Below, in pieces: positions 2,988 to 25,587 of a stretch of DNA of 32,715 bases; the first letter of the stretch is position 1; each line of letters begins with the position of its first letter. The DNA lies in the NCBI RefSeq assembly GCF_053078305.1, contig NZ_CP166878.1. One strand, written 5' to 3'. A model generated the notes under the pieces. That model saw only the letters and a program-made list of their open reading frames with translations, did no database searches and was not told the origin of the DNA. The DNA comes from a plasmid. The position numbers were made by a program, and so were the translations under genes.

Positions 2988-3000
2988 ACATTTAGCATTA

Positions 3001-3080
3001 TATGCTTATATGCTTATATGCTTATATGCTTATATGCTTATATGCTTATATGCTTATATGCTTATATGCTTATATGCTTA
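3001..3080. repeat. Perfect tandem octamer microsatellite (TATGCTTA x10)
   Basis: Ten uninterrupted head-to-tail copies of TATGCTTA directly readable in sequence, starting 14 bp after the virB11 stop. Confidence 0.95.
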
Positions 3081-3105
3081 TATCATTGTGTTTGTGTGAA
3101 ATATT

Positions 3106-3299
3106 GCTGTAACATCGACGGTCTACGACCACCTACCACCTGAATAGCTGTAGGTTCCGTGCGGTCAGGCTTGGCAGGGGGCTGACGCGGTTCCTGGCGA
3201 CATGAAACTCCCTGGTTAGGGGTATCGGCGCGACCTGGCATCTGTGACTCTATAAAGCCATTTTTCGCGCCTTCCATGCCGCTAAAGCGGCATATTCCA
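3106..3299 (+). repeat. 194-bp repeat family, copy 1 (upstream of ccdA)
   Basis: Near-identical to 18900-19093 and ~90% identical to 3962-4155; begins GCTGTAACATCGACGGTCTACG and ends with hairpin ATGCCGC-TAAA-GCGGCAT then ATTCCA. Confidence 0.9.
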
Positions 3300-3366
3300 C
3301 ACTTCTAGATCCGGGGTTTTGGGTATATGCTATGTTTATATGCATAATTTATGTGGGGGGCTTGTT

Positions 3367-3961: not shown

Positions 3962-4155
3962 GCTGTAACATCGACGGTCTACGACCACCTACCAGCCGAG
4001 TGGCTGTCTGTTCCGTGCAAATGGGCTTTGCAGGGGGCTGGCGCGGTTCCTGGCGACCTGAAAGCCCCTGGTTAGGGGTATCGGCGCGACCTGGCATCTG
4101 TGACTCTATGAAACCATTTTTCGCGCCTTCCATGCCGCTAAAGCGGCATATTCCA
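3962..4155 (+). repeat. 194-bp repeat family, copy 2 (downstream of ccdB)
   Basis: Same length and ends as copy 1; about 20 substitutions clustered in hairpin-forming segments, several compensatory. Confidence 0.9.
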
Positions 4156-15665: not shown

Positions 15666-15818
15666 CTACGGGGATGATAATACCCATGAGGTTGATACTT
15701 GGCAGAGTCAGCTTGTGGGCATTATCAGGGGACTATAAAAGCCCATTTAAATTGTATTTAAATCATCCGGTAACGGCAAGAAAAATAATGTGTCATTCAG
15801 GCATAAGTGCAGGGCCAT

Positions 15819-16787
15819 ATGATTAGTCCGGCAATTGATTATTTTGCGGCAAACTTGCCATACCGACCTTATCACGCGAATGAATTGCTCTATGGGCTTC
15901 GTATCGATAAGGCAGCTAAAGCAGTGCTGGCGCGTTATATACAGCATAATCCACCTCATGCAATGTACTGGCTTGTTTTTGACGTTGACAGGCCAGTTGC
16001 GGCGATTGACTGGAATGATCTTAATGCGCCCACACCTAATTTTACGGTCAAAAATCCGGTTAATGGTCATGCACACCTGTTTTATGGGTTAAAAACGGCA
16101 GTTCGTGTTGCCAAAGACGGTAGCATTAAGGCGATCGAGTTTGCTGCTGCGGTAGAGCGAGGATTACGTGACAAACTTAAATCAGATATCGGCTATGCAG
16201 GGCTGATCTGTAAAAATCCTCTCCATACATGCTGGCAGGTTGTTGAATGGCGTGGAGAACTTTATGAGTTAGCTGAACTGGCTGATTATGTTGATTTGTA
16301 CGCGTCAACAGCGGCTAACGATGAACAGGCATTCGATATCGACTTTAGTTATGGGCTTGGGCGAAATTGTTGGCTCTTCAATCTGACCCGTATCTGGTCA
16401 TATACAGCAATCCGGCAGGGCTGGCCTGATTTCCCGCAATGGAAAGAAGCGGTGATTCAGCGTGTCGAAATGTATAACGTGCAGTTAAGCGTGCCTTTGT
16501 CTCACAAAGAATGTGTATGCATTGGCTCCAGCATCGCCAAATGGACGCATAGACGCTTCACTGAAGCTGGATTTGAGCAATATGTAGCTGATACCCATAC
16601 ATCAGAAATTCAGGCTCGTAGAGGGCGTAAGAATCGCTCAGAAGTGCAGGCTGCTAAGGGGCGTAAAGGTGGGAAAATATCTAAAAGAGGGATTGTTGAG
16701 GATTCTGCGCGGAGTTTGAAACCGTGGGTAGAGTTAGGGATCAGTCGGGCAACCTATTATCGACGTAGGGCAAATGAGACCAAATAA
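15819..16787 (+). CDS. ColE2-type plasmid replication initiator (primase-type Rep, Replicase family)
   Basis: N-terminal region YRPYHANELLYGLRIDKAAKAVLARYIQHNPPHAMYWLVFDVDR is characteristic of ColE2-like Rep proteins as I recall them; basic HTH-like C-terminus; origin-like sequence overlaps the stop. Confidence 0.65.
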   Translation: MISPAIDYFAANLPYRPYHANELLYGLRIDKAAKAVLARYIQHNPPHAMYWLVFDVDRPVAAIDWNDLNAPTPNFTVKNPVNGHAHLFYGLKTAVRVAKDGSIKAIEFAAAVERGLRDKLKSDIGYAGLICKNPLHTCWQVVEWRGELYELAELADYVDLYASTAANDEQAFDIDFSYGLGRNCWLFNLTRIWSYTAIRQGWPDFPQWKEAVIQRVEMYNVQLSVPLSHKECVCIGSSIAKWTHRRFTEAGFEQYVADTHTSEIQARRGRKNRSEVQAAKGRKGGKISKRGIVEDSARSLKPWVELGISRATYYRRRANETK

Positions 16788-16815: not shown

Positions 16816-17015
16816 TCTTGATCCTTGCAGACAGATCCTTTGCCTTTAGTGATCTTCCGATTTTCAGGTATTGAGTCTTTTATGAGAGAGATGATAGCGC
16901 CCGCCGCAGCCCCAGCGACCGAACCGCCAGGTGAGCGAGTAGGCGAGGAGGCGCAAGGGAGTCAGAGGTTGATGTTTGCACTTACGCTCGATGTTTGAGC
17001 ACGGCAAGAAGACAA

Positions 17016-17291
17016 ATGGAGAGTATGATGATGGTCTGTATACTTGTTGTGTCAAATAACGGTCGGGAAGAATTGATTGATTTTAATCCCGATCATGATT
17101 TAGCGCACATTATCAAATCATACCGGACACCAGAAAACAGGATGGTATGTATTATCCAGGATGGTAAGCGCATTCTTCGTTGGGATCGCAGTTATGCTTC
17201 CCGTGCAAAAAATCACTGGCGTAAGGTAGATCCAGACAGTTTTGAGATTTTAGGGTCTGTTGAATATCTCCGCTATGTTGGTCAGGGTTAG
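17016..17291 (+). CDS. Hypothetical protein (91 aa)
   Basis: ORF from ATG 17016 (track begins at TTG 16995); no family recognised; stop abuts the Tn21-like repeat. Confidence 0.35.
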   Translation: MESMMMVCILVVSNNGREELIDFNPDHDLAHIIKSYRTPENRMVCIIQDGKRILRWDRSYASRAKNHWRKVDPDSFEILGSVEYLRYVGQG

Positions 17292-17293
17292 TT

Positions 17294-17340
17294 GGGGCGT
17301 TGAAAACGGAAAATAACCCACGCTAAGACTGTTTTTTAAC
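17294..17340 (+). repeat. Tn21-subfamily-like inverted repeat, left arm
   Basis: GGGGCGTTGAAAACGGAAAATAACCCACGCTAAG matches the inner 25 bp of the Tn21 IR (remembered ...CAGAAAACGGAAAATAAAGCACGCTAAG); inverted partner at 18563-18609. Confidence 0.6.
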
Positions 17341-17649
17341 CAGGCTATGATAATGCTATCTGTGACGGATGATGGTCGTTGCTCTTTTGTTAATGCTAAC
17401 GGATGCGTACATTAGCATTAACTTTTTGTGTTATGTTGCACGTGAATTTTTGAGTTTTAATATTTATATAATGTTATGAATATTAAAGATAAATGATGAA
17501 CATGCTTTGTGATGGCTTTTGGCGCATAGATTGATCTTAAGATCTGCGCATGTTATTTTTATGCGGTTTTGACGAATTTATAAGGGTAGGACGTTCCCGT
17601 AACAGCGTCCAGGGGAGGGGGTAGCGAATTTATAGCCCCCGGAATGCAA

Positions 17650-17710
17650 CAACCCCCTGATATCTCTCTTAGAGCTTTTGCGGGGCCAAAGAAGATAATC
17701 AGGGGGTCCA
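17650..17710 (+). promoter_or_regulatory. Long stem-loop in repA leader (candidate antisense-RNA target)
   Basis: Arms CCCCCTGATATCTCTCTT / AAGAAGATAATCAGGGGG around an 18-nt loop containing GCCAA (one base off the conserved IncFII/IncB loop hexamer); location upstream of leader peptide and repA. Confidence 0.45.
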
Positions 17711-17743
17711 AAGCAGGCTTTTGCCTGTAAAGGATTATAGCAA

Positions 17744-17800
17744 ATGCATTTTTCAATACAAGACTACTGCCCGGCAATAAGTGCGGGCGGTGGTGGCTGA
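17744..17800 (+). CDS. Leader peptide overlapping repA start (translational coupling candidate)
   Basis: 18-codon ORF MHFSIQDYCPAISAGGGG whose stop lies 17 nt inside repA, the arrangement seen for tap/repY-type leader peptides. Confidence 0.45.
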   Translation: MHFSIQDYCPAISAGGGG

Positions 17801-18506
17801 AAAGAACAATTCCTTAATCCCCCGCATATCGCCGTCAGGGGTGGCCAAACAAAGTCCATGCTATAACGTTGTGTCGCGTAAGCGACGCCGTTTCCTCAAT
17901 CGCTGGATTAAATCGCTGGCGACGGTCGCTGGGCGTGTCAAAATCAAAAACGAACTCCGCCGCCGTATCCGGCATAACCGATATTGGGTTAATGAGGCTA
18001 ACAAGTTTGGCATAGAGGCACTTTGCGAACTGATGTTAGCTATCCTGGATGATCTCGATTTACGCTCCTGGGAAACCAGGCATAACCTCGAAACACTGGC
18101 AGAACGTGCCGGACTGGTGACACGCAGTGACGCGGGGCGTAAATCTATTTCCCGTGCCAGTAGGGGATGTGATCGCCTGGTCTGGTTGAATGCGATCATT
18201 ACAGATAAAGCGCCGTTTAACCCCTATGATGCACGGTGTGCCTGTAAACACATTGAAGTAACCGAAGACTTCTTTGCCATACTCGGCATTCCGTTAAAAC
18301 TGGTTTATCGGGAACGTGCCAGGCTGTTAAAGGCAGATCCTAATGAAATGATTTACTCCGGGGATGCCAGACTGATAGCTATCAGAGTCCAGAACTGGAC
18401 ACGGAAAGCGGCAGCCGGATTAGCCCGGATGAAAGCGAAACGCGACGCAGCTCGACAACGCAAAAAAGAATATTACGCTCACCCACCTACCCCTATTCCG
18501 GTCTGA
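17781..18506 (+). CDS. repA: IncFII-family replication initiator RepA
   Basis: Segment LETLAERAGLVTRSDAGRKSISRASRGCDRLVWLNAIIT aligns with the RepA1 core of R100-type proteins (SITTLAIECGLATESAAGKLSITRATRALTFLSELGLIT); GTG start right after an in-frame stop. Confidence 0.75.
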   Translation: MRAVVAEKNNSLIPRISPSGVAKQSPCYNVVSRKRRRFLNRWIKSLATVAGRVKIKNELRRRIRHNRYWVNEANKFGIEALCELMLAILDDLDLRSWETRHNLETLAERAGLVTRSDAGRKSISRASRGCDRLVWLNAIITDKAPFNPYDARCACKHIEVTEDFFAILGIPLKLVYRERARLLKADPNEMIYSGDARLIAIRVQNWTRKAAAGLARMKAKRDAARQRKKEYYAHPPTPIPV

Positions 18507-18562
18507 TACAGGCTAACTTACCGCCTTATGGGGCGGTGTATCGCCACGTCCATAATAAAAAG

Positions 18563-18609
18563 CTGTACAAAAAATAGTCTTGGCGTGGGTTATTTTCCGT
18601 TTTCCATGC
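18563..18609 (-). repeat. Tn21-subfamily-like inverted repeat, right arm
   Basis: Reverse complement reads GCATGGAAAACGGAAAATAACCCACGCCAAGACTATTTTTT, matching the left arm over ~36 bp with 2 mismatches; outer GGGG is absent. Confidence 0.6.
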
Positions 18610-18659
18610 TCAGAAAAGAGCAGTTATAAGCTGTATCATTGGGTAAACAATGCACAGGT

Positions 18660-18668
18660 TGTGGATAA
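18660..18668 (-). promoter_or_regulatory. Consensus DnaA box (TTATCCACA)
   Basis: Forward TGTGGATAA is the exact complement of the 9-mer consensus; lies about 150 bp downstream of repA. Confidence 0.5.
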
Positions 18669-18705
18669 TCATACTTAAAGTGCAAACGATATGCCGCAAT
18701 TACTC

Positions 18706-18750
18706 TTTTGCTTCTCTTTTAGTTACTTACGTACTAAAAGAGAAGCAAAA
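18706..18750. repeat. 18-bp perfect inverted repeat with 9-nt spacer (origin-region hairpin candidate)
   Basis: TTTTGCTTCTCTTTTAGT - TACTTACGT - ACTAAAAGAGAAGCAAAA; no T-run on either strand, so not a terminator. Confidence 0.8.
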
Positions 18751-18899
18751 AAGAAAAACATTACTGTTATCCCCTTTAACAAGTGAATAACCTAAAAACA
18801 TCGGCGCAAGCGCCTCAAAAGTAGCACCCCTCGCAAGCTCGGGGCATTAGAAACAACAGCATCCCATCATCACAATCGAACTATTATTCATCTATCTTC

Positions 18900-19093
18900 G
18901 CTGTAACATCGACGGTCTACGACCACCTACCACCTGAATAGCTGTAGGTTCCGTGCGGTCAGGCTTAGCAGGAGGCTGACGCGGTTCCTGGCGACATGAA
19001 ACTCCCTAGTTAGGGGTATCGGCGCGACCTGGCATCTGTGACTCTATAAAGCCATTTTTCGCGCCTTCCATGCCGCTAAAGCGGCATATTCCA
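18900..19093 (+). repeat. 194-bp repeat family, copy 3
   Basis: Differs from copy 1 by only a few substitutions; same orientation; sits between the repA origin region and the next gene. Confidence 0.9.
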
Positions 19094-19196
19094 TAAGAAT
19101 TTACATGAGCGTATACTTTATAATCAGTATCAATGAAAGTTGCTTGTCCAAATCAGGGGCAACAATCGCATCAAATAACTTGCGCAGGTGAAAATT

Positions 19197-19505
19197 ATGG
19201 AGACTTTCGATACAGATAAATTTCGCTCAGAACTGGATCTTTTATCAAAAAAGATCATGCCTGGTTGTGGTCTTGTTTTTGAGCTGTATCAACGTCGTTT
19301 GAGCGCTGCGATTGATGAATTTGTCGCCAGATTGCCGAAAGAACAACATGCTCAGGCGTTTGAACTGGCTCGCCAGGAGTTTGATTATCTTTCTGCAGAA
19401 GAGATTGCAGATGAAATACGCCGAGACGCAGAAAAAGGCTATTGTTGCCACGGCATTGATCGCGATTGCTGCCCTCTTGGTTGCGGTGATTTAGATGATT
19501 ATTAA
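19197..19505 (+). CDS. Hypothetical protein with Cys-rich C-terminus
   Basis: ATG 19197 after AGGTGA RBS; C-terminus GYCCHGIDRDCCPLGCGD; unknown family. Confidence 0.5.
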   Translation: METFDTDKFRSELDLLSKKIMPGCGLVFELYQRRLSAAIDEFVARLPKEQHAQAFELARQEFDYLSAEEIADEIRRDAEKGYCCHGIDRDCCPLGCGDLDDY

Positions 19506-20221: not shown

Positions 20222-20340
20222 GTAGATAAATGACGTTGCTACGTGGTCTCCCTCTTTTGCTGATTTCACGTAGCACTCTCACTCTGCCGCTACTTCTCGT
20301 TATTCTGAACAGATGATTGAAAAATAAGGAGAATCAAATA

Positions 20341-20379
20341 ATCTCTTGATTTTATAATCCTATGATTATAAGATTGTTG
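20341..20379 (+). promoter_or_regulatory. Operator-like block P1 (CTTGATTTTATAATCCTATGATTATAAGATTGTT)
   Basis: About 85% identical over ~38 bp to 23919-23956 and related to the TGATT-repeat region upstream of parA. Confidence 0.5.
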
Positions 20380-21529: not shown

Positions 21530-21583
21530 TGATCGTGGCGCGATTGCCAGCGAGCTAGGGGTTCCGTGGGAATTTCTGCGATA

Positions 21584-21621
21584 GGGGTTTGAAGCCCAAC
21601 CGTACGAAAACGTACGCTAAG
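21584..21621 (+). mobile_element. Tn1000/Tn3-family 38-bp terminal inverted repeat
   Basis: GGGGTTTGAAGCCCAACCGTACGAAAACGTACGCTAAG, close to the gamma-delta/Tn3 IR consensus (GGGG...ACGAAAAC...ACG.TAAG); a resolvase gene remnant ends 2 bp away. Confidence 0.75.
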
Positions 21622-22404: not shown

Positions 22405-22536
22405 TATACAATCACTTGATTCGATAATTATAAAATTAAGTGATTTTATGATTGCATGATTCTATGAGCATGGGATTATTAGAATGTTTGGCAGAGGTAC
22501 TATGTGAACAAAGGGGAGGGGAAAATGCCTAAAGTT
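22405..22536 (+). repeat. Orphan duplicate of par promoter-operator plus first 4 parA codons
   Basis: About 94% identical over 132 bp to 24844-24975, including RBS and ATGCCTAAAGTT, then diverges; the operator inverted repeat is degenerate in this copy. Confidence 0.85.
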
Positions 22537-22614
22537 GGAGCAGCGGGAGCGTTCGAACAGAGACTTACGGTTTCGTTCTTTGTGCAGCAGTTGAAACCGT
22601 AATTATTTGTTTTA

Positions 22615-22865
22615 GGGGTTTGAGGCTCAGTGGAACAATAACCGCCGTTAAGCGGTCATTTTAAATAGCCAAAAATCAACCAGCCAATTTACATCGTGAA
22701 TCTGCGTTCTTGGCTATCTGTTTTGGGGGGCCAAGTTGGCTTTACTCATCCTGGCCGTTTGCGGAACAAAAGACGTTGTTGATCTCAACAGATTGATTAA
22801 CCTGTTATTGACCATTCAATTGAACCGCTTAACCGCCTTTTGAGTTCCACTACTCCCCAAACCCC
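22615..22865. mobile_element. Miniature Tn3-family element (TIME-like), 251 bp, with 5-bp target-site duplication
   Basis: 38-bp IRs GGGGTTTGAGGCTCAGTGGAACAATAACCGCCGTTAAG (22615-22652) and inverted GGGGTTTGGGGAGTAGTGGAACTCAAAAGGCGGTTAAG (22828-22865); flanked by direct repeat TTTTA on both sides; no ORF inside. Confidence 0.8.
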
Positions 22866-22882
22866 TTTTATGCCAAGTAGAA

Positions 22883-23091
22883 GGGGTTTGAGGGCCAACC
22901 GTACGAAAACGTACGGTAAGAGGAAAATTATCGTCTTAAAAATCGATTAGTAGACAATGCCGTCCGTTAAGTGCCAATTTTCGATTAAAAAGACACCGTT
23001 TTGATGGCGTTTTTCTATGTCCATTATGTTTTGATATATCAGACAGTTACTTCACTAACGTACGTTTTCGTTCCATTGGACTTCAGCCCCC
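22883..23091. mobile_element. Second miniature Tn3-family element (TIME-like), 209 bp, with 5-bp target-site duplication
   Basis: IR GGGGTTTGAGGGCCAACCGTACGAAAACGTACGGTAAG (22883-22920) and an inverted IR at 23054-23091 that contains TGGAACGAAAACGTACGTTA; flanked by TAGAA on both sides. Confidence 0.75.
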
Positions 23092-23111
23092 TAGAATACG
23101 TCAGATGTGTT

Positions 23112-23805: not shown

Positions 23806-23918
23806 GACTTTGTTCTCCTTCTGCCATGATAAAAGATCTTGTTTTACATACCATGATAGGCACATGTGCCTGTTTGGTGCAACATGCTTTACAAACATAA
23901 GAATAATAAAAGGATATA

Positions 23919-23956
23919 ATCCCTTGATTTTGTAATCATATGATTATATGATTGTT
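23919..23956 (+). promoter_or_regulatory. Operator-like block P2 in divergent promoter region
   Basis: ATCCCTTGATTTTGTAATCATATGATTATATGATTGTT, homologous to P1 (20341-20379); lies between divergently oriented genes. Confidence 0.5.
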
Positions 23957-24843: not shown

Positions 24844-24963
24844 TATACAATCACTTGATTCGATAATCATAAAATCAAGTGATTTTATGATTGCATAATT
24901 TTATGAGTATGAGATTATTAGAATGTTTGGCAGAGGTACTATGTGAACAAAGGGGAGGGGCAA
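24844..24963 (+). promoter_or_regulatory. par promoter-operator (candidate centromere/operator)
   Basis: Perfect 12-bp inverted repeat AATCACTTGATT ... AATCAAGTGATT plus reiterated TGATT motifs directly upstream of parA. Confidence 0.6.
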
Positions 24964-25587
24964 ATGCCTAAAGTTATAGCATTTTTAAATGGTAAGGGGG
25001 GGGTGTCTAAGACAACCTCGGCAGTCAATATTGCTACTGCTCTTGCTCGTAAGGGATACAAAGTTGTCGTTGTGGATACCGATCCTCAGGGAAGTGTTAG
25101 TAACTGGTATGATGACAGTAAGTGTGTTTTTGATGTAGCAGAAGCTACGACAGAAAAAGAAATTTACCGTTTGCGGAAGGCGCTTCCTTTGCACGATTTT
25201 ATCATTATTGATGGTGCTGCGGCGATTTCGGCGATATCGGCAGCTGCTGTTATGGTTTCTGATCTTGTCATTATCCCAGTTACTCCTTCGCCGCTTGATT
25301 TTGCTGCATGTGGCGCGATATTGGCAGTGATAGAAGCTCGGCAGGATTTACGCCCGGTGATTGCTCGCTTTTTGATTACTAAAAAAGTACAGCAAACGCA
25401 TATGCTATCTTTGCTGAAAGAATCTATTGCAGAAACAAGCATACCAGCATTAAAAACAGGAACGTCGTACAGGCAGTCATATATAAAGTCTATGCTAGAT
25501 GGTGGTACTATATTTGATACAAAAGATAGTGCTGCTAAAGGTGAAATATCAGTCATTACAGAAGAAATACTTGGACTATTAAAATGA
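24964..25587 (+). CDS. parA: ParA-family partition ATPase (ParF-like)
   Basis: Deviant Walker [19 protein letters not shown]; ATG 24964 with GGGGAGGGG RBS (ORF track begins at upstream GTG 24943). Confidence 0.9.

Follow-up and report, generated by a model that had tools for sequence, protein, structure and literature searches.

The DnaA box and the long AT-rich palindrome that lie downstream of repA very probably form the repA-proximal half of the replication origin (oriV) of a pCRY-type replicon of the IncFII superfamily, in its native place. The analysed DNA, hereafter the window, is one strand of a 32,715-nt plasmid stretch (GCF_053078305.1, contig NZ_CP166878.1), and both elements are contained in an origin module of ~200 bp at about 18656-18852. 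A preliminary description of this DNA had taken the region to fit an origin, and we agree: the module is kept downstream of repA family-wide and corresponds, element by element, to I-complex and IncFII origins that were defined by experiment. The underlying observations were also borne out, i.e., a consensus DnaA box (18660-18668, TGTGGATAA as written and TTATCCACA when read from the minus strand), an 18-bp perfect inverted repeat with a 9-nt spacer (18706-18723 / 18733-18750), and a location just past repA, the box starting 153 nt after the repA stop (TGA 18504-18506). The elements of the replicon and its surroundings are, in order of position:

17294-17355, plus strand: left arm of an inverted repeat flanking repA, a Tn3/Tn21-type terminal repeat relic (GGGG..GAAAACGGAAAATAACCCACGCTAAG) with tnpA-3'-end-like bases
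17651-17778, plus strand: repA leader with stem-loop and pseudoknot, predicted I-complex/IncL-M-type translational control and antisense RNA target
17744-17800, plus strand: leader peptide ORF (MHFSIQDYCPAISAGGGG), 18 codons, its stop overlapping the repA start region
17781-18506, plus strand: repA, replication initiator, a distant IncFII-superfamily member of pCRY type
18520-18537, plus strand: GC hairpin ACCGCC-TTATGG-GGCGGT directly after repA, conserved in alignment A1
18551-18609, minus strand: right arm of the inverted repeat, a fossil Tn3-family tnpA end and terminal repeat in the repA-origin spacer
18660-18668, minus strand: DnaA box 1, perfect TTATCCACA, at the repA-proximal origin edge
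18677-18705, plus strand: putative RepA-binding boxes, AAAGTGCAA at 18677-18685 and ATGCCGCAA at 18691-18699
18700-18756, no strand assigned: AT-rich palindrome abutting the final GCAA box, proposed to serve in unwinding and hairpin formation
18706-18723: palindrome left arm, TTTTGCTTCTCTTTTAGT
18724-18732: palindrome spacer, TACTTACGT
18733-18750: palindrome right arm, ACTAAAAGAGAAGCAAAA
18758-18790, no strand assigned: conserved block ACATTACTGTTATCC, holding degenerate DnaA-like boxes 2 and 3
18767-18775, plus strand: degenerate DnaA-like box 2, TTATCCCCT
18782-18790, minus strand: degenerate DnaA-like box 3, TTATTCACT
18803-18814, no strand assigned: GC-rich hairpin GGCGCAAGCGCC, conserved in A1, closing the origin module
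18827-18844, no strand assigned: GC-rich hairpin CCCCTCGCAAGCTCGGGG, conserved in A1 and homologous to R64/pCT CTCCCACGCTAACGCGCGGGCCCC

We evaluated the initiator against protein families and individual relatives. RepA matches Pfam IncFII_repA (PF02387) at superfamily level only (29.3 bits, cutoff 22.9, E 7e-7), and it scores 53.8 bits against NCBIfam RepA_IncFII_LM (under the cutoff of 70) and 17.9 vs 446.9 bits against the TIGR03474 incFII_RepA equivalog. Pairwise, it shares 35% identity over 69 aa with IncFII RepA (best match) and has a marginal 37-aa local match to the 355-aa IncL/M RepA (E 0.001), while BLASTP against R64 RepA gave no significant match (best E 4.8); by these comparisons, the protein does not appear to belong to the I-complex or L/M clade. 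Identity to pCRY RepA is 84% across the C-terminal 200 aa, and relatives of RepA occur in 512 plasmid records. The leader upstream of repA matches Rfam RF01089 PK-repBA along the full model (1-124/124; 86.4 bits, gathering score 45, E 4e-18), and no CopA-family RNA was matched when the whole window was scanned at Rfam gathering scores, the leader being of PK-repBA type. An antisense-target stem-loop is present, and a simple promoter scan of 17200-19300 gave no sigma-70-like site on either strand. Because the stop of the leader peptide overlaps the repA start region (in-frame repA GTG codons at 17781, 17790, and 17793), the layout suggests that translation of the two is coupled. A second rep gene (15807-16787, PF03090) is found on the same plasmid, and given its presence the pCRY-type origin might be redundant there.

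The exact DnaA box TTATCCACA occurs as a single copy in the 32.7-kb window, in which sites with ≤1 mismatch to the motif number 13 vs 9.8 ± 3.1 expected. Since the motif is not enriched, the significance of box 1 lies in its position and conservation, not in its count. Its distance to the hairpin centre is fixed at 63-64 nt in 52 of the 53 loci with enough flank, and the box itself reads TGTGGGTAA (n = 34), TGTGGATAA (n = 11), TGTTGATAA (n = 5), or TGTGAGTAA (n = 2). Strong DnaA binding is thus no family constant, as the commonest variant has one mismatch to the consensus.

The module is widespread. When 18507-18900 was used as a blastn query, 1186 plasmid records matched, with hosts in Klebsiella, Escherichia, Enterobacter, Citrobacter, Salmonella, and Yersinia. 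For distant relatives at 80-88% identity (pCRY and large Klebsiella, Enterobacter, Citrobacter, and Salmonella plasmids), homology covers 18656-18852, i.e., it starts at the DnaA box and stops at about 18852. In pCRY and in loci L004, L005, L006, and L008, the module lies 150-190 nt past a gene that is annotated as “RepA family” and shares its strand, and it is downstream of repA in every annotated relative examined, Yersinia pestis pCRY included; more broadly, among 55 homologous loci drawn from plasmids, genomes, and metagenomes, 44 have a repA ORF that ends about 150-176 nt upstream. Among metagenome pattern matches, 19 of 55 were chance matches without surrounding homology and were removed by eye. 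RepA and origin diverge together across the family (84% and 84% vs pCRY). In the 24-kb plasmid NZ_CP122934, the hairpin and the spacer-borne transposon relic recur alongside a perfect DnaA box, and the sole annotated initiator is a RepA 96.7% identical to that of the window. This sole initiator is evidence that the pCRY-type replicon works, as is the finding, among E. coli transconjugants, of plasmids for which IncFII(pCRY) was the only type assigned (PMC11863281).

Literature searches returned only typing and epidemiology papers and no functional dissection of any pCRY-type origin; the module was compared with the origins of R64 (NC_005014), pCT, IncL/M pEl1573, and IncFII pC15-1a. These follow the order seen in the window, i.e., post-repA GC hairpin, DnaA box, GCAA boxes, T-rich hexamer, one inverted repeat, ACTG block, and a GC hairpin homologous to that of the window. 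Their DnaA boxes lie 166-175 nt after the repA stop, compared to 153 nt in the window, and all have the opposite orientation to box 1; a single inverted repeat, of 7-10 bp, occupies the equivalent place in every one of these origins. The two GCAA cores are invariant across the window, pCRY, R64, pCT, IncL/M, and IncFII (alignment A4), although each window box is one base off the IncB/IncI AANCNGCAA pattern, and the window has the hexamer TCTTTT at the place of the I-complex TCTTAA. Within the family, the putative RepA boxes sit in blocks AAGTGCAAACGA and GCAATTACTC, conserved in all eight alignment-A1 sequences that retain this origin part (the IS26-truncated pT5282 is in A1 without it).

The I-complex (IncB pMU720, IncI1 ColIb-P9/R64, IncK pCT) resembles the window upstream of repA in its leader peptide, pseudoknot, and antisense control, and downstream in a post-repA GC hairpin, a ~150-170-nt spacer, and a DnaA box marking the repA-proximal edge; GCAA-type boxes come next, then a T-rich hexamer, a single inverted repeat whose arms are 9 nt apart, and a GC hairpin homologous to that of the window (..CCCACGCTAA.GCGCGGG..). 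For R64 specifically, the DnaA box lies 166 nt after the repA stop, the post-repA hairpin is AGCCCC-TCC-GGGGCT, and four AANCNGCAA boxes stand where the window has two with one mismatch each (AAAGTGCAA, ATGCCGCAA). Unlike in the I-complex, the DnaA box is reversed in the window and RepA is without significant similarity to R64 RepA, and whereas the I-complex inverted repeat is GC-rich, 7 bp, and 25 nt further on, the AT-rich 18-24-bp arms of the window abut the last box. Betteridge et al. 2003/2004 reportedly described the IncB origin in the order DnaA box, AANCNGCAA RepA boxes, and TCTTAA, together with the opening site, and the hexamer is said (Betteridge et al. 2004) to be essential for opening in IncB; the series of box, RepA boxes, and hexamer is also seen in R64.

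IncL/M plasmids (pMU604 type; pEl1573) have the nearest leader at the DNA level (~73% identity), a post-repA ACCGCC-GCCT-GGCGGT-TTTCG hairpin at the same place, two ..CTGCAAT boxes, and an AT-rich inverted repeat directly before a ACTGTTAT block with a TGTGGATTA box to its right. Their left-edge DnaA boxes, however, are reversed relative to the window, and the inverted repeat is short (8-bp arms) and contains GATC sites. The window hairpin at 18520-18537 is the counterpart of the terminator hairpin that opens the repA-origin spacer (CIS) in IncL/M and IncI1; it has no T-run and received no call in the terminator scan. For IncFII (R1, R100; pC15-1a), RepA is of the same Pfam family and the origin, 175 nt after repA, opens on TTATCCACA and continues through GCAA motifs and an AT-rich stretch to a GC hairpin. 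Differences are CopA/CopB/Tap control instead of the PK-repBA leader, the box orientation, and, for R1, the lack of a long palindrome in the AT-rich part, the sole inverted repeat being 10 bp and further downstream. In R1, it is RepA that opens the helix, and DnaA occupies its own box only when RepA sits immediately downstream (PMC5883639).

The IncFII(pCRY) type (Yersinia pestis 91001 pCRY, NC_005814, and relatives) is the same family, with the same element order and spacing and 84.4% identity between the pCRY and window modules over 197 nt. While box 1 of pCRY is TGTGGGTAA, the window subgroup combines a perfect box 1 with weaker boxes 2 and 3, which in relatives are TTATCCACG and TTATCCACT, each one mismatch off consensus. 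The arms read GCTTCTC/GAGAAGC in the window vs GGTTTATC/GATAAACC in pCRY, and the window subgroup differs further in what lies upstream and in having one more Tn3-end relic ahead of repA. Between the hairpin and box 2, the A-tract is length-variable, such that box 2 lies 40-48 nt from the hairpin centre. Outside the module, the 194-nt repeat at 18900-19093 was considered as a single long hairpin of single-strand promoter type and rejected, as both strands have only modest structure (z about -2.3); likewise, a coding reading of the region was set aside, the 46-codon ORF at 18650-18790 being annotated in no relative.

The palindrome occupies a GC trough (26-30% GC), its arms extend to 24 nt at 92% complementarity (18700-18723 / 18733-18756), and two extra pairs (A18725-T18732 and C18726-G18731) leave a TTAC tetraloop. 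As single-stranded DNA, it folds at -17.1 kcal/mol on the plus strand (z = -7.8) and -17.7 kcal/mol on the minus strand (z = -8.8), and none of 200 shuffled sequences folds equally well. All 11 arm variants fold as well (-11 to -17 kcal/mol, z -5 to -9.4), with 7 of the 18 pairs altered on both sides. The arm covariation score is 0.199 vs 0.076 for shuffled alignments (0 of 500 reach it) and 0.046-0.074 with slid partners, and 85% of cells in the arm alignment are paired vs 51-58% with slid partners. This 85% is conservative: the MAFFT hairpin alignment is ungapped and counts L005 and L006, which have a 2-nt insertion by the loop, as partly unpaired, although their own folds show pairing. Arm complementarity is under selection or otherwise maintained. 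Since templated (strand-switch) mutation can keep palindromes perfect without selection, covariation overstates function here.

The loop appears invariant as well, but this is partly circular because the scans that collected the loci required TTACTTACGTA. In an independently blast-selected set, the loop is identical in 8 of 9 sequences. A relative with 70% RepA identity, which carries ATTTACAT where the collection pattern had TTACTTACGTA, keeps the hairpin and the TTAC loop, with a compensated closing pair (C-G to T-A).

From this layout, we infer that RepA and DnaA bind within the module, that the duplex opens nearby, and that the palindrome takes part in what follows. Specifically, RepA synthesis would be under antisense-RNA and pseudoknot control, with leader peptide translation coupled to that of repA, and the protein would act preferentially in cis over the ~150-nt spacer that opens with the GC hairpin. 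RepA would then occupy the GCAA-type boxes at 18677-18705 beside host DnaA on 18660-18668, and the two could jointly melt the adjoining AT-rich DNA, i.e., the palindrome at 18700-18756, an unusually long one at the likely unwinding site. Each melted strand could form a hairpin of ~20 bp capped by a strand-specific tetraloop, TTAC or GTAA, which would keep the origin open and/or offer a structured entry site for DnaB helicase and primase; a CTG is found 14 nt 3' of the plus-strand hairpin. The far border of the origin would consist of the degenerate DnaA-like boxes and the GC hairpins at 18758-18844. It is possible, if doubtful, that pCRY-type origins have in this way replaced the plain AT-rich unwinding stretch of I-complex and IncFII origins with a structure-dependent element, such that folded DNA, beyond mere AT-richness, signals for the origin to stay open or for helicase or primase to be recruited.

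Alternatively, the palindrome of a genuine origin could act as double-stranded DNA, i.e., as a symmetric site for a dimeric protein (a host factor, or RepA dimers in, e.g., autoregulation, origin pairing, or initial docking), without being melted or folded, which we regard as rather unlikely. Each window arm does hold GAGAAGCAA, which resembles the putative RepA boxes in being a GCAA-type motif, two-sided arm changes would also be expected from co-evolving half-sites, and the region bound by R1 RepA reportedly has partially palindromic 10-bp recognition sites at its ends (Giraldo and Diaz 1992). However, the arm GCAA motif is missing in most relatives (pCRY arms have GATAAACC), one-nucleotide single-arm bulges that shift the half-site register are tolerated (L005, L018, L027), and the non-palindromic TTAC centre holds one orientation. 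The 11 arm variants also occur among RepAs with identical AAGTGCAAACGA/GCAATTACTC boxes, and arm sequences differ between RepAs 95-97% identical, although the relation of arm sequence to RepA identity does not decisively tell structure from protein binding.

It is unlikely, in turn, that the palindrome has no function of its own and owes its perfection to templated strand-switch mutation of an AT-rich quasi-palindrome, in an origin spacer for which only AT-richness and length would matter. Templated correction of quasi-palindromes is established biology, comparator origins manage with inverted repeats of 7-10 bp, and the free length of the right-hand A-tract (40-48 nt) indicates that this origin part tolerates change. 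Against this stand the ~20-bp hairpin with its TTAC loop, kept in all 55 loci and 63-64 nt from box 1 in 52 of the 53 with enough flank, its presence in the 70%-RepA relative too, and the single inverted repeat at the equivalent place in each comparator origin.

The preliminary description had also noted that box and hairpin lie outside an inverted-repeat-bounded rep unit and suggested that initiator and origin may have become separated. Under such a scenario, repA would reside in a transposon-like unit and the box and hairpin would be orphaned or foreign, unmatched to the initiator. The inverted repeat is indeed present (17297-17355 / 18551-18609, 59 nt, 80%), flanks repA and its control region with Tn3-family-like arms, and places the right arm between repA and the DnaA box. 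Still, both arms are, judging from their sequence, fossil Tn3-family ends, i.e., a 38-bp-type terminal repeat and the last tnpA bases, and both are copies of the same (tnpA-side) transposon end. Two intact 38-bp repeats are not present: the left arm has GGGG..TAAG but is 34 nt long, and the right arm is missing its outer GGGG end and, when compared with L004, is shortened by a 10-nt deletion. The left arm, which directly follows the pilI stop, is a junction scar outside the replicon and is absent from the 24-kb relatives and pCRY, whereas the right arm is homologous and more complete in L004 and the 24-kb plasmids, diverged in pCRY, and always located in the repA-origin spacer. Movement of the unit as a whole among sites was not seen, since the 24-kb plasmids and pCRY have a right arm but no left arm. 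No 5-bp target-site duplication surrounds the unit (TAGTT at 17289-17293 vs TCAGA at 18610-18614), a weak test since the right end is truncated. Because the arms are fossil, the right one is shared with plasmids that lack the left, the only replicon of the 24-kb plasmids has the same repA-relic-origin arrangement, and the spacer length is inside the family range, with RepA and origin diverging together, we consider a split origin very improbable and the arrangement native.

Finally, an RNA-level or transfer signal (terminator, small RNA, oriT, or relaxase-binding repeat) is next to negligible in probability, for although the hairpin is a long stable intergenic stem-loop on a plasmid with a VirB/Trb-type transfer system, no U-run follows the stem on either strand, the terminator scan made no call, the Rfam E-value scan gave only sub-threshold chance matches (miRNA and leader models, 20-29 bits vs gathering scores ≥40) that reflect no more than the presence of a long hairpin, and the hairpin belongs with the replicon rather than the transfer system because it accompanies repA in MOBC, MOBP, and MOBF plasmids with MPF_T, MPF_I, or MPF_F.

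Taken together, the origin is of an ordinary type from an undissected sub-family. pCRY-type replicons are widespread, many of their carriers being conjugative and some carrying resistance genes, and annotation pipelines leave their origin unannotated. Transposon scars in the repA-origin spacer can pass for mobile-unit boundaries. The element map, comprising the DnaA box, two GCAA boxes, the covarying palindrome, two weak DnaA-like boxes, and two GC hairpins, can serve mutagenesis. For replication biology, this is a modest addition, a further variant of the repA-spacer-origin design; if folding of the palindrome does prove part of initiation, it would represent a hairpin-dependent step in a theta-type enterobacterial plasmid.

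The preliminary description had placed a DnaA box and a perfect 18-bp hairpin just past repA, and both are present as claimed. The plus strand at 18660-18668 reads TGTGGATAA, i.e., the minus strand carries the consensus DnaA box TTATCCACA (box 1), starting 153 nt past the stop codon of the ORF at 17781-18506. This exact consensus occurs once in the whole window; because near-matches are not enriched there (13 vs 9.8 +/- 3.1 expected), the motif by itself proves nothing. The hairpin arms, TTTTGCTTCTCTTTTAGT (18706-18723) and ACTAAAAGAGAAGCAAAA (18733-18750), flank the spacer TACTTACGT, in which 2 additional pairs leave a TTAC tetraloop, and the inverted repeat reaches 24 nt at 92% complementarity. 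Folded as single-stranded DNA, either strand yields ~-17 kcal/mol (z -7.8 and -8.8), which 0 of 200 shuffles equal.

Using blastn with 18507-18900, we found matches in 1186 plasmid records. Homology in distant relatives (80-88% identity) spans 18656-18852 and therefore begins at the DnaA box. In all annotated relatives fetched, this module follows a co-oriented "RepA family" gene at a distance of 150-190 nt, and the repA ORF ends 152-176 nt upstream of it in 44 of 55 true homologues, gathered from two collection scans with the module pattern and from the plasmid loci above. Box 1 reads TGTGGGTAA (n = 34), TGTGGATAA (n = 11, the window's subgroup), TGTTGATAA (n = 5) or TGTGAGTAA (n = 2) across loci, and its distance to the hairpin centre is a constant 63-64 nt.

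Elements of the module, in order, from the alignments
18660-18668: box 1
3' of box 1: conserved blocks AAGTGCAAACGA and GCAATTACTC
3' of these blocks: the hairpin
3' of the hairpin: A-tract of variable length
3' of the A-tract: block ACATTACTGTTATCC with two DnaA-like boxes in inverted orientation
Module end: two GC hairpins

The DnaA-like boxes of ACATTACTGTTATCC are weak in the window and 1 mismatch from consensus in relatives. What survives of this origin in the IncHI2/IncR plasmid pT5282-mphA (~2436-2500) is a dead remnant: an IS26 end GGCACTGTTGCAAA adjoins the left hairpin arm, and its arrival has removed the GCAA boxes, box 1 and repA.

The ORF at 17781-18506 encodes an IncFII-superfamily RepA (Pfam IncFII_repA, 29.3 bits, cutoff 22.9) with 35% identity to IncFII RepA over 69 aa. 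It falls under the NCBIfam cutoffs, no significant match to IncI1 RepA was found, and it is distant from the classic groups. Directly 5' of repA, at 17651-17778, lies a full PK-repBA element (Rfam, 86.4 bits), the leader/pseudoknot region of IncB/IncI/IncL-M replicons, and an 18-codon leader ORF (17744-17800) ends within the repA start region. Relatives of this RepA were found in 512 plasmid records, Yersinia pestis pCRY among them, and the replicon is the type named IncFII(pCRY) in typing schemes. E. coli plasmids of ~30 kb match the window at ~98% identity; they encode a VirB/Trb transfer system and, besides repA, another rep gene unrelated to it. This second gene (15807-16787; Pfam Replicase PF03090, E 4e-43; without NCBIfam match) sits 1 kb 5' of repA, and the plasmid is therefore a two-replicon mosaic.

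We read or aligned the post-repA DNA of IncI1 R64, IncK pCT, one IncL/M plasmid and one IncFII plasmid, which share a common layout with the window.

Common order 3' of repA in R64, pCT, the IncL/M and the IncFII plasmid
GC hairpin right after repA
Spacer
DnaA box, 166-175 nt past the stop in R64 and the IncFII plasmid
GCAA-type boxes, with four matching AANCNGCAA in R64
T-rich hexamer 3' of the final GCAAT
Exactly one inverted repeat
ACTG block
GC hairpin, the R64 and pCT versions visibly homologous to those of the window and pCRY

Published descriptions agree with this layout. Together with the conservation of the module 3' of repA, it bears out the initial suggestion that the region fits an origin. 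The window differs from the compared origins: its DnaA box is inverted, it has two GCAA-type boxes instead of four, its hexamer is TCTTTT rather than TCTTAA, and its inverted repeat is much longer and AT-rich. The IncB origin, in work by Betteridge et al. from 2004, reportedly opens over one helical turn directly after the final RepA box; by analogy, the equivalent place in the window would be ~18700-18712, the outer part of the left hairpin arm. The hairpin lies in the region's GC minimum (26-30%). For R1, DnaA occupies its box only with RepA bound immediately downstream, the helix is opened by RepA, and the plasmid survives mutation of the DnaA box, with a higher copy number (PMC5883639).

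Several other readings of the hairpin were rejected: a terminator, since neither strand has a T-run and a terminator scan does not call it; a known RNA, since its Rfam matches are all sub-threshold; a coding role, since the small ORF overlapping it is never annotated; and a transfer-origin repeat, since it accompanies repA in plasmids with MOBC, MOBP and MOBF relaxases. Across ten distinct arm variants, 85% of alignment cells pair as in the window vs 51-58% with partners slid 1-3 columns, two-sided changes affect 7 of 18 pairs, and the covariation score is 0.199 vs 0.076 shuffled (reached by 0 of 500 shuffles). All variants fold (-11 to -17 kcal/mol), one arm tolerates single-base bulges, and arms are not the same between RepAs 95-97% identical. 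A relative with 70% RepA identity retains the TTAC loop on a hairpin of 20 bp, the closing pair changed from C-G to T-A. The hairpin centre is identical in 8 of 9 of the blast-selected set, and its apparent invariance is partly circular because the collection scans required TTACTTACGTA. Related sequences may exceed shuffles without constraint, and templated mutation can keep palindromes perfect. Weighing the pairing and folding results against these caveats, we consider it likely that the structure matters, and infer a role in holding the origin open, or in helicase or primase entry.

It had also been suggested that the origin, lying outside a rep unit bounded by inverted repeats, may have been separated from its initiator. 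Such a repeat does exist (17297-17355 vs 18551-18609, 59 nt, 80%), but both arms are scars of the tnpA-proximal Tn3-family end, aligning to the last tnpA bases and the 38-bp terminal repeat, and delimit no mobile rep cassette. The left arm, whose GGGG start at 17294 is directly 3' of the pilI stop, is absent from the 24-kb plasmids and pCRY. The right arm, within the repA-origin spacer, lacks its outer end; at the same place the 24-kb plasmids have a fuller version of it, and pCRY a diverged one. Flanking 5-mers differ, hence there is no target duplication. From this distribution and these flanks, the right arm is an old spacer scar of the replicon lineage and the left arm a later junction scar.

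Separation is further contradicted by NZ_CP122934 (24 kb), which has the same spacer scar, a perfect DnaA box and the same hairpin, with this RepA as its only annotated initiator, and by the recovery of plasmids typed only IncFII(pCRY) as E. coli transconjugants (PMC11863281). Thus, origin and initiator are not separated.

Further repeats were noted. Four sequences resembling Tn3-family 38-bp terminal repeats (GGGGTTTGA...ACGTACG.TAAG; 21582-21621, 22614-22652, 22882-22920, 23056-23093) form direct and inverted pairs at distances of 137-1436 nt; they have the appearance of miniature elements derived from Tn3, or of scars left by such elements. In Enterobacter asburiae p16773_3, the 70%-RepA relative, a complete Tn3-type terminal repeat GGGGTCCGCTTGGAAAAAGGAAATTATCCTACGCTAAG (2270-2320) lies immediately 3' of the origin, thus Tn3-family ends recur at varying positions around this replicon type. 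In a 24-kb relative (L004), an 88-nt inverted repeat (1232-1319 and 3220-3307, 89%) encloses control region, repA, spacer, origin and a 194-nt repeat, and might mark the edge of a module in replicon exchange. A single related copy is present in the window (16895-16956), with the second rep gene on one side and pilI on the other. The 194-nt direct repeat has 3 copies in the window (3106-3299, 3962-4155, 18900-19093; 91-98% identical), the third just 3' of the origin module and retained there in 24-kb relatives (84.5%). Its predicted structure is modest, its final ~28 nt resemble a hairpin that IncFII and IncK plasmids have 3' of their origins, and it may be a priming signal. Directly 5' of copy 1 and 3' of a VirB11/T2SSE-type ATPase ORF (1923-2987), a perfect tandem array of the 8-mer TTATATGC (2998-3083, 10.8 copies) could be iteron-, centromere- or operator-like. 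Recurring arrays of short ATAATC/TGATT-type motifs (20338-20378, 22405-22542, 23916-23956, 24844-24981), including a 138-nt pair at 93% and one array just 5' of a ParA-like ORF (24943-25587), are probably operator or centromere-like.

Box 1 and the hairpin belong to the origin native to a pCRY-type replicon, which falls in the IncFII superfamily and has control in the I-complex/IncL-M style. This origin is an uncharacterised member of a well-known kind of origin, mildly unusual in its inverted DnaA box and its long, covarying, AT-rich palindrome, which probably sits at the unwinding site.
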